A stretch of DNA of 64,000 bases from a virus. Position 1 is the first letter of the stretch, and each line of letters begins with the position of its first letter. A program made the translations under genes and the position numbers. The notes below the pieces were generated by a model. That model did no database searches. It was not told the DNA's origin and saw only the letters and a program-made list of their open reading frames with translations. The stretch covers positions 4,421-68,420 of IMG/VR virus record IMGVR_UViG_3300027805_000012. The stretch is one strand, 5' to 3'. This document shows, piece by piece, positions 51,061 through 51,170 of the stretch.

Positions 51061-51170
51061 GTGGGTGTAACTCAGTTGGTCAGAGTCAGTGGTGGCGTAT
51101 CCATCGATTCTGAGTGGAGATGCATCAAACCTCAGAAGGCGAGTCGTAGGTTCGAATCCTACCACCCGCA
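51061..51170 (+). ncRNA. tRNA-like RNA with anticodon domain replaced (59 nt)
   Basis: gtgggtg/cacccgc, canonical D arm, gtagg-TTCGAAT-cctac; no encoded CCA. Confidence 0.7.

Follow-up and report, generated by a model that had tools for sequence, protein, structure and literature searches.

A tRNA frame with a replaced anticodon domain in the tRNA array of a Ro60-encoding viral genome

Phage tRNA arrays are usually read as supplies for codon usage or for anti-defence. What, then, is a gene that stands within such an array, is built like a tRNA in every arm but one, and holds something other than an anticodon arm at its decoding end? We studied a gene of this kind, at positions 51061-51170 (plus strand) of a 64,000-nt stretch of viral DNA (hereafter, the window) that corresponds to positions 4,421 to 68,420 of the IMG/VR virus record IMGVR_UViG_3300027805_000012. 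The source record is a fragment of 69.8 kb that CheckV places at 19% completeness, and a huge phage is therefore implied. ARAGORN finds 17 ordinary tRNAs in the array and one more at 26023. The gene lies in a 263-nt gap of the array between tRNA-Phe and tRNA-Arg(ACG), which it shares with an unusual frame beginning at 50924, and it is in register with its neighbors, starting 7 nt after the preceding gene and ending 9 nt before the next. Elsewhere, the window encodes, among others, a 510-aa protein with weak DUF7487, Mom-like, and Vsr-like matches (5131-6663, minus strand) and a 611-aa SMC/RecF-type ATPase (11183-13018, minus strand).

Base-by-base reading identifies a complete tRNA chassis, comprising a 7-bp acceptor stem, a 4-bp D arm, a 5-bp T arm, and all elbow and core nucleotides (Table 1). 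A preliminary description made from the letters alone had called these three arms textbook, and direct reading agrees, with 7/7, 4/4, and 5/5 pairs, respectively, or 16/16 chassis stem pairs intact. U8 and A9 come after the acceptor 5' strand and C26 is nucleotide 51087; the core and elbow are represented in full by U8, A14, G15:C48, G18G19, U12-A23 with A9, C13-G22 with G46, U54U55C56, and A58. Judged from these letters, the tertiary core is intact in that G46 can join the C13-G22 triple, C48 can pair with G15, and U12-A23 can take A9. Scanned strictly for tRNA frames on both strands, the 64-kb window has long ones in only four places, all within the array, and the chassis at 51061-51170 is therefore far beyond chance. 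The gene is thus confirmed as a tRNA frame whose anticodon domain has been replaced. The extent of the replacement differs from what the preliminary description had proposed, namely, 59 nt in place of the anticodon and variable domains: the anticodon arm is indeed replaced and the spacing from D stem to T stem is indeed 59 nt, but the last 5 of these are a retained variable loop, GAGUC, and the swap amounts to 53 nt (hereafter, the cargo) for a 17-nt arm. Both of the structures reported there, a hairpin with a 5-nt loop and the inverted repeat ttctgag/ctcagaa, were found within the cargo.

Table 1. Features of the gene at 51061-51170 and of related elements. Positions are those of the window unless a label beginning with L, which denotes another viral contig, precedes them.
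Feature	Position	Strand	Basis or detail
CCA-adding enzyme gene, 374-aa open frame	30922..32040	+	PF01743, 81 bits
tRNA array	49647-52467	+	ARAGORN
Acceptor stem, 5' strand GUGGGUG	51061..51067	+	7/7 pairs with 51163-51169, one of them G-U
D arm, stem ACUC/GAGU with 9-nt loop AGUUGGUCA containing A14, G15, G18, G19, A21	51070..51086	+	4/4 pairs; direct reading and frame scan
53-nt cargo in place of anticodon arm positions 27-43	51088..51140	+	lacks a closing stem; anticodon arm not regained by any single excision; without homologue
Hairpin 1, 6-bp stem UGGUGG/CCAUCG, 5-nt loop CGUAU	51090..51106	+	direct reading and folding
Hairpin 2, perfect 7-bp stem UUCUGAG/CUCAGAA, 16-nt loop containing the palindrome GAUGCAUC	51108..51137	+	direct reading and folding
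Retained variable loop GAGUC (G46, C48)	51141..51145	+	direct reading; form matches AGGUC/AGGCC of neighboring frames
T arm GUAGG-UUCGAAU-CCUAC	51146..51162	+	stem 5/5; partial Rfam tRNA match 51142-51162, 14.5 bits
Acceptor 3' strand CACCCGC and discriminator A (51170), then UUA AACA, not CCA	51163..51170	+	direct reading
50924-type CCA-ended tRNA frame	50924-51053; L022 6322-6451 (+); L023 3754-3880 (-); L018 802-929 (-)		conserved in four phages
CCA-less tRNA frame family	51262-51361; L058 2009-2127 (-); L059 3336-3474 (-); L084 1493-1591 (-)		window copy and three viral contigs
Docking hairpins in the window	50662-50688; 50981-51007; 61201-61227; 61369-61395		model R2, 25.7-31 bits
Ro60 orthologue (TROVE + vWA)	61679-63289	+
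tRNA frames with CCA and a 32-nt insert in the anticodon loop	L024 9669-9772 (minus-strand positions); L029 1494-1597	-	related huge phages

Is the gene nonetheless a working tRNA in disguise? ARAGORN calls no tRNA at 51061-51170, whether its intron option is on or off; nor does the Rfam tRNA model RF00005, which returns just a T-arm fragment at 14.5 bits against a gathering threshold of 29 bits. The preliminary description had staked itself against an alternative fold as an ordinary tRNA, and it withstands both searches. The gene has the 7-bp acceptor stem, the D arm, the T arm with a UUCRANY loop, and the elbow nucleotides of a canonical tRNA; what it does not have is a 5-bp anticodon stem with a 7-nt loop bearing U33 and a purine at 37, and because it is without a 7-nt loop bearing U33 and R37 it cannot decode. 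The remaining route to a decoder would be splicing, and we regard an intron-bearing tRNA as very improbable. All ways of removing one segment from the 59-nt middle with a class I layout as outcome were considered, and at least 4/5 stem base pairs plus U33 and R37 counted as a pass; none of the 147 parses restores an anticodon arm, and the identical test, as a positive control, recovers anticodon loops in two insert-bearing frames of related phages. In favor of an intron, related phages have frames in which a single 32-nt excision gives a plausible anticodon loop, and a contrived parse of hairpin 2, with 9 nt removed, would leave a CAA loop. However, at 53 nt the insert falls far short of a group I intron, the smallest known bacterial tRNA introns of this group being ~200 nt; phage-encoded tRNA splicing endonuclease (PF01974) and RtcB (PF01139) are absent from this record and from relatives that are 97% and 71% complete; Rfam matches over the gene at E values up to 10 include no intron, ribozyme, or other family; contigs from RNA libraries, which miss small mature RNAs and are weak evidence here, run unspliced through the gene with no internal joint; and CCA is not encoded. 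Brute-force deletion scans for intron removal were too permissive to inform, unlike the strict parse with its 0 solutions.

Several other identities can be dealt with briefly. In a class II tRNA-Tyr reading, hairpin 1 would be a GUA anticodon arm and hairpin 2 the variable arm; we rejected it, because alignment to three tRNA-Tyr genes of a relative shows identity in the T arm only, positions 33 and 37 of the loop are C and U, and the supposed variable arm is followed by 8 nt. A tmRNA was rejected as well (G3-C70 rather than G3-U70; no ARAGORN tmRNA call). That the gene is instead part of a protein-coding frame of 78 aa (50938-51174, plus strand), which appears in a mechanical list of open reading frames, has a negligible probability in our judgment: the frame crosses two complete tRNA frames of a tightly packed array and is without separate support. 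Within the cargo itself, a mini-ORF of AUG plus 9 codons was dismissed, given that GGAG abuts the AUG, a spacing wrong for initiation.

The 3' end sets the gene apart from the tRNAs around it. CCA is encoded by all 18 ordinary tRNAs of the window and by the 50924 frame; here the discriminator is followed by UUA and then by AACA, the usual post-CCA spacer of this array, so the lack of an encoded CCA noted in the preliminary description stands. CCA is likewise missing from the frame at 51262 and its three relatives in other viral contigs (4/4 members, with AGA, AUA, ACA, and CCU). The accompanying claim, that the RNA would need a phage or host CCA enzyme, holds in part. A phage gene for such an enzyme exists (Table 1), and CCA addition is possible; but the claim presumes that a CCA end is used, and the contrast of 18/18 with none suggests no aminoacylation and is more in keeping with RNAs for which an aminoacyl end is dispensable. 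The absence of CCA from this gene and from the 51262 family points to a non-aminoacylated RNA, and the RNA is probably not aminoacylated because, besides the missing CCA, G3-C70 is not the Ala identity pair and there is neither a G-1 nor a canonical long variable arm. Further, two of the three CCA positions have changed and none of ~44 constrained chassis positions has, a pattern in favor of selection having acted on the chassis once CCA was lost, if the ancestor is assumed to have borne CCA. A CCA-adding enzyme gene was also found in two related huge phages. Downstream, at 52648-52745 (plus strand), lies a tRNA-like frame with two tandem T arms that ends in CCU rather than CCA.

Two freshwater metatranscriptomes, each from a separate study, contain contigs nearly identical to this region; they span 51071-51325 and 51119-51543 without a gap, although metatranscriptome libraries can contain DNA, and contigs cannot reveal ends, processing, or even transcription. 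Over 50964-51104, cover in runs X1 and X2 is low or zero for several bins, which, being contig-only data, is uninformative either way. For the array region 49600-52500, the best two public holders are freshwater metatranscriptomes, one from a 2017 study and the other from a 2023 study; each contains about half the sampled words, compared with no more than 15% in any DNA run.

If the chassis is clear, the cargo is less so. Hairpin 1, at 17 nt, has the size of an anticodon arm, and when it is drawn with 5 bp and a 7-nt loop, that loop (GCGUAUC) has C33 and U37. The 5' part of hairpin 2 has a competing partner: pairing of GAUUCUG with CAGAGUC, on the 3' side of the D stem, is nearly isoenergetic with the cloverleaf-type fold (-30.6 vs. 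-31.4 kcal/mol). The fold of the 59-nt middle is not beyond chance, its minimum free energy being -12.9 kcal/mol against -13.4 +/- 2.7 kcal/mol for 1000 dinucleotide shuffles. Against the array and leader region, the longest exact complementary match of the cargo is 8 nt, and the best match elsewhere in the window is 14/15 at 41790-41804 (E = 4.2).

The homologue search that the preliminary description had called for was run, and no cargo homologue was found in phage collections, IMG/VR, metagenomes, or ten related phages. Specifically, blastn in its "distant" setting returned none from INPHARED phages, a locus search by flanking proteins found no homologue of the gene, exact cargo patterns gave only chance matches within coding genes of IMG/VR and one chance match, in a murF-like coding gene, among metagenome contigs, and blastn-short against all fetched loci detected nothing related to the cargo. 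With a covariance model that spans the entire gene (R1), the gene itself scores 142.6 bits and the next best across ten related huge-phage records are ordinary tRNAs, at 38 bits; a DNA search of the ten records likewise gave no homologue. In the phages that are closest by Ro60 identity (87% and 82%), the syntenic slot holds other genes. There is therefore no covariation support for either hairpin. A pattern for the 3' half of the chassis found only an unrelated tRNA-like gene. This gene, in an unrelated viral contig (L090 10975-11060, minus strand), has a CCA anticodon-type loop and a short irregular 5' half and receives no ARAGORN call; its acceptor 3' strand is identical to that of the gene studied here.

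The lack of a homologue keeps alive the main and most serious rival to a functional RNA, a young pseudogene: an array tRNA whose anticodon arm was destroyed by illegitimate insertion or replacement, which has lost its CCA and is heading, functionless, for deletion. A singleton without homologue in ten related phages or public collections, absent from the syntenic slot of its closest relatives, with a mutated CCA and a cargo no more stable than its shuffles, is what such an origin would leave behind. Set against this are three points. The chassis has zero disrupted pairs or invariant nucleotides even though two of three CCA positions have changed; phage genomes rarely keep dead DNA; and the cargo-bearing frames at 50924 and 51262 of the same array also fold poorly by z-score and yet are conserved, so a weak z-score is no sign of decay. 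Weighing both sides, we consider a pseudogene unlikely.

Does the gene belong to one of the conserved families of unusual RNAs in this array? Its nearest chassis is the 51262 frame (43/56 positions), by a small margin over tRNA-Ile (40/56), and the two may share a chassis ancestor. Both stand in this array and lack CCA, and in both the middle is enlarged and a long run of unpaired bases leads up to the T arm. The 51262 family, however, is defined by an invariant 19-nt loop core, CUCAUGGURAAGGACCAAA, in a 5-bp stem with two covarying pairs, followed by an insert of variable length (0-39 nt); G3-U70 is present in the copy of the window. Membership of this family was rejected: the invariant core is absent, and the family model (R3) gives the gene 44.5 bits, a score like those of ordinary tRNAs (48.5 for tRNA-Val and 46.8 for tRNA-Ile), without aligning the cargo to the family core. 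Local alignment of the cargo with the family gives p = 0.13-0.71. A wastewater contig carries a 51262-type copy with 4 differences in 95 nt.

The second family is linked to Ro60. The window encodes a Ro60 orthologue 10.5 kb downstream of the gene on the same strand, and in all ten related loci fetched, a hairpin of the form RACCG-N8-9-YGGUUAUC occurs upstream of Ro60 and also within the tRNA arrays. We collected 27 distinct instances of this docking hairpin, eight of them inside 5.4 kb of one 360-kb phage contig (L059 4392-9747, minus strand); they were chosen by regular expression, so that their invariance is partly by construction. Both here and in related phages, two copies precede Ro60; the partner of the closing G is U or C. 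In the 50924-type frames, the hairpin is part of a ~50-nt arm between the D and anticodon arms, whose 9-bp helix shows compensatory changes across the four phages (e.g., from U-A to C-G or to A-U); the frames differ in their anticodon-like loops (CUU, CUU, CAU, and one unclear).

It could be supposed that the gene encodes a Ro60-associated Y-like RNA, with hairpin 1 representing, in collapsed form, the helix at which the phage Ro60 protein docks. Besides the Ro60 gene on the same strand, four RNAs of the window carry the docking motif, including the gene 7 nt upstream; hairpin 1 has UGGU paired with AUCG, plus UAUC, the letters of the conserved helix in the 50924 docking arm; and AUCG/UGGU pairs form the helix base in the 50924-type RNAs, with compensatory changes across four phages. 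Bacterial Y RNAs, moreover, mimic tRNA (PMC4201824). We nonetheless judge this reading improbable. A model built from the 27 instances (R2), run with filters off and E values up to 10, finds nothing in 51061-51170, the next-best site of the window scoring 14.9 bits; MAFFT fails to align the cargo with the docking arms; and the Rfam family YrlA (RF02553) has no match over the gene, its weak matches merely bridging adjacent genes. The shared letters are rearranged, would need a 4-nt insertion, and were spotted after the fact, so they carry little weight, and published Y RNAs lie within ~4 kb of Ro60 (PMC4201824) compared with 10.5 kb here. YrlA-type Y RNAs (RF02553; PMC4201824) resemble the gene in being non-decoding, in having T and D arms that are recognized by tRNA enzymes, and in occurring in genomes that encode Ro60. 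However, YrlA is circularly permuted, running from T arm through a closed acceptor hairpin to D arm with its two ends in the Ro60-binding stem, whereas the gene has the normal tRNA order, an open 7-bp acceptor stem, and no docking hairpin, and is farther from Ro60. The gene is a member of neither the docking-hairpin (Ro60-linked) RNAs nor the 51262 family.

The explanation that we favor, and hold to be probable by a modest measure, is that the gene specifies a lineage-specific, non-decoding small RNA in which a tRNA chassis carries a two-hairpin cargo and which is processed with the array. Given its in-register position, the gene would be transcribed together with the tRNAs. The intact acceptor/T-arm stack and the D/T elbow would let RNase P cut the 5' end at 51061, and the usual 3' processing would then yield a stable, L-shaped RNA of ~110 nt. 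The L-shape would protect the RNA, and the cargo would be shown to a partner at the anticodon end. The steps from transcription onward are drawn from established tRNA biology. Precedent within the same array is provided by the CCA-less neighbor at 51262, which has been kept, with compensatory changes in its stem, in three other viral contigs. A wider proposal, possible but doubtful in our estimate, is that huge phages encoding Ro60 express and process a variety of unrelated small RNAs on one general chassis, the tRNA body; this gene would be a recent member of the set, with a lineage- or host-specific partner. The cargo would then consist of the 16-nt loop with self-complementary GAUGCAUC on its 7-bp stem, together with a stem that swaps two pairings, and its role might be that of a protein sponge or a dimerizing regulator rather than a tRNA function or Ro60 docking.

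Natural and artificial systems of similar design are known. The tRNA gene cluster of phage T4 produces two stable RNAs, RNAC (species 1, 139 nt) and RNAD, with unknown roles (PMC3014915). RNAC has a canonical T arm (CCGGG-UUCGAAU-CCCGG), an acceptor-like 3' strand, and a long non-tRNA insert. As in the case described here, small RNAs are encoded in a phage tRNA cluster, with a tRNA-like 3' domain in RNAC; RNAC and RNAD are transcribed with their cluster, as the present gene would be. The differences are that there is no sequence similarity between them and the gene; that T4 is not a Ro60-encoding huge phage; and that a full D arm and the core triples are kept here and not obviously so in RNAC. 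On the synthetic side, the engineered tRNA scaffolds of Ponchon and Dardel (2007) reportedly put cargo where the anticodon stem-loop had been. The design is the same, in that acceptor, D, and T arms are kept so that cellular tRNA enzymes process and stabilize the cargo; these scaffolds, however, are man-made and their cargo is closed by the anticodon stem, whereas the gene has two hairpins and no closing helix.

Scattered among the ordinary tRNAs of this array, then, are several RNAs with a tRNA body but no decoding end, and the gene at 51061 is their cleanest case of a chassis with foreign cargo. If such RNAs are functional, phages exploit the tRNA-processing and tRNA-stabilizing machinery of their hosts for other small RNAs, a scaffold principle that synthetic biologists have reinvented. 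There is published precedent in T4; what is new here is a class I chassis with its full core, two hairpins without a closing stem, and no CCA. The element is a singleton, and its value is mainly as one data point for the wider pattern. It also carries a warning, since tRNA finders silently skip genes like this one.

Other departures from the standard tRNA form occur in related phages. In the two frames with a 32-nt insert (Table 1), one excision restores a normal anticodon loop ambiguously, as GAC or GUU in one frame and as GCC or GAC in the other; their phages encode neither a splicing endonuclease nor RtcB, and one of the inserts contains ACCGAAC...UGGUUUAUC, a variant of the docking hairpin. 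Four related phages (L022, L023, L025, and L027) have many class I tRNAs of 83-95 nt (Asn, Glu, Ile, Gln, and Asp) with an extra variable arm, and in one tRNA-Asn of a related phage this arm reads ACCGCUUCGGCGGUUAUG, close to the docking hairpin.
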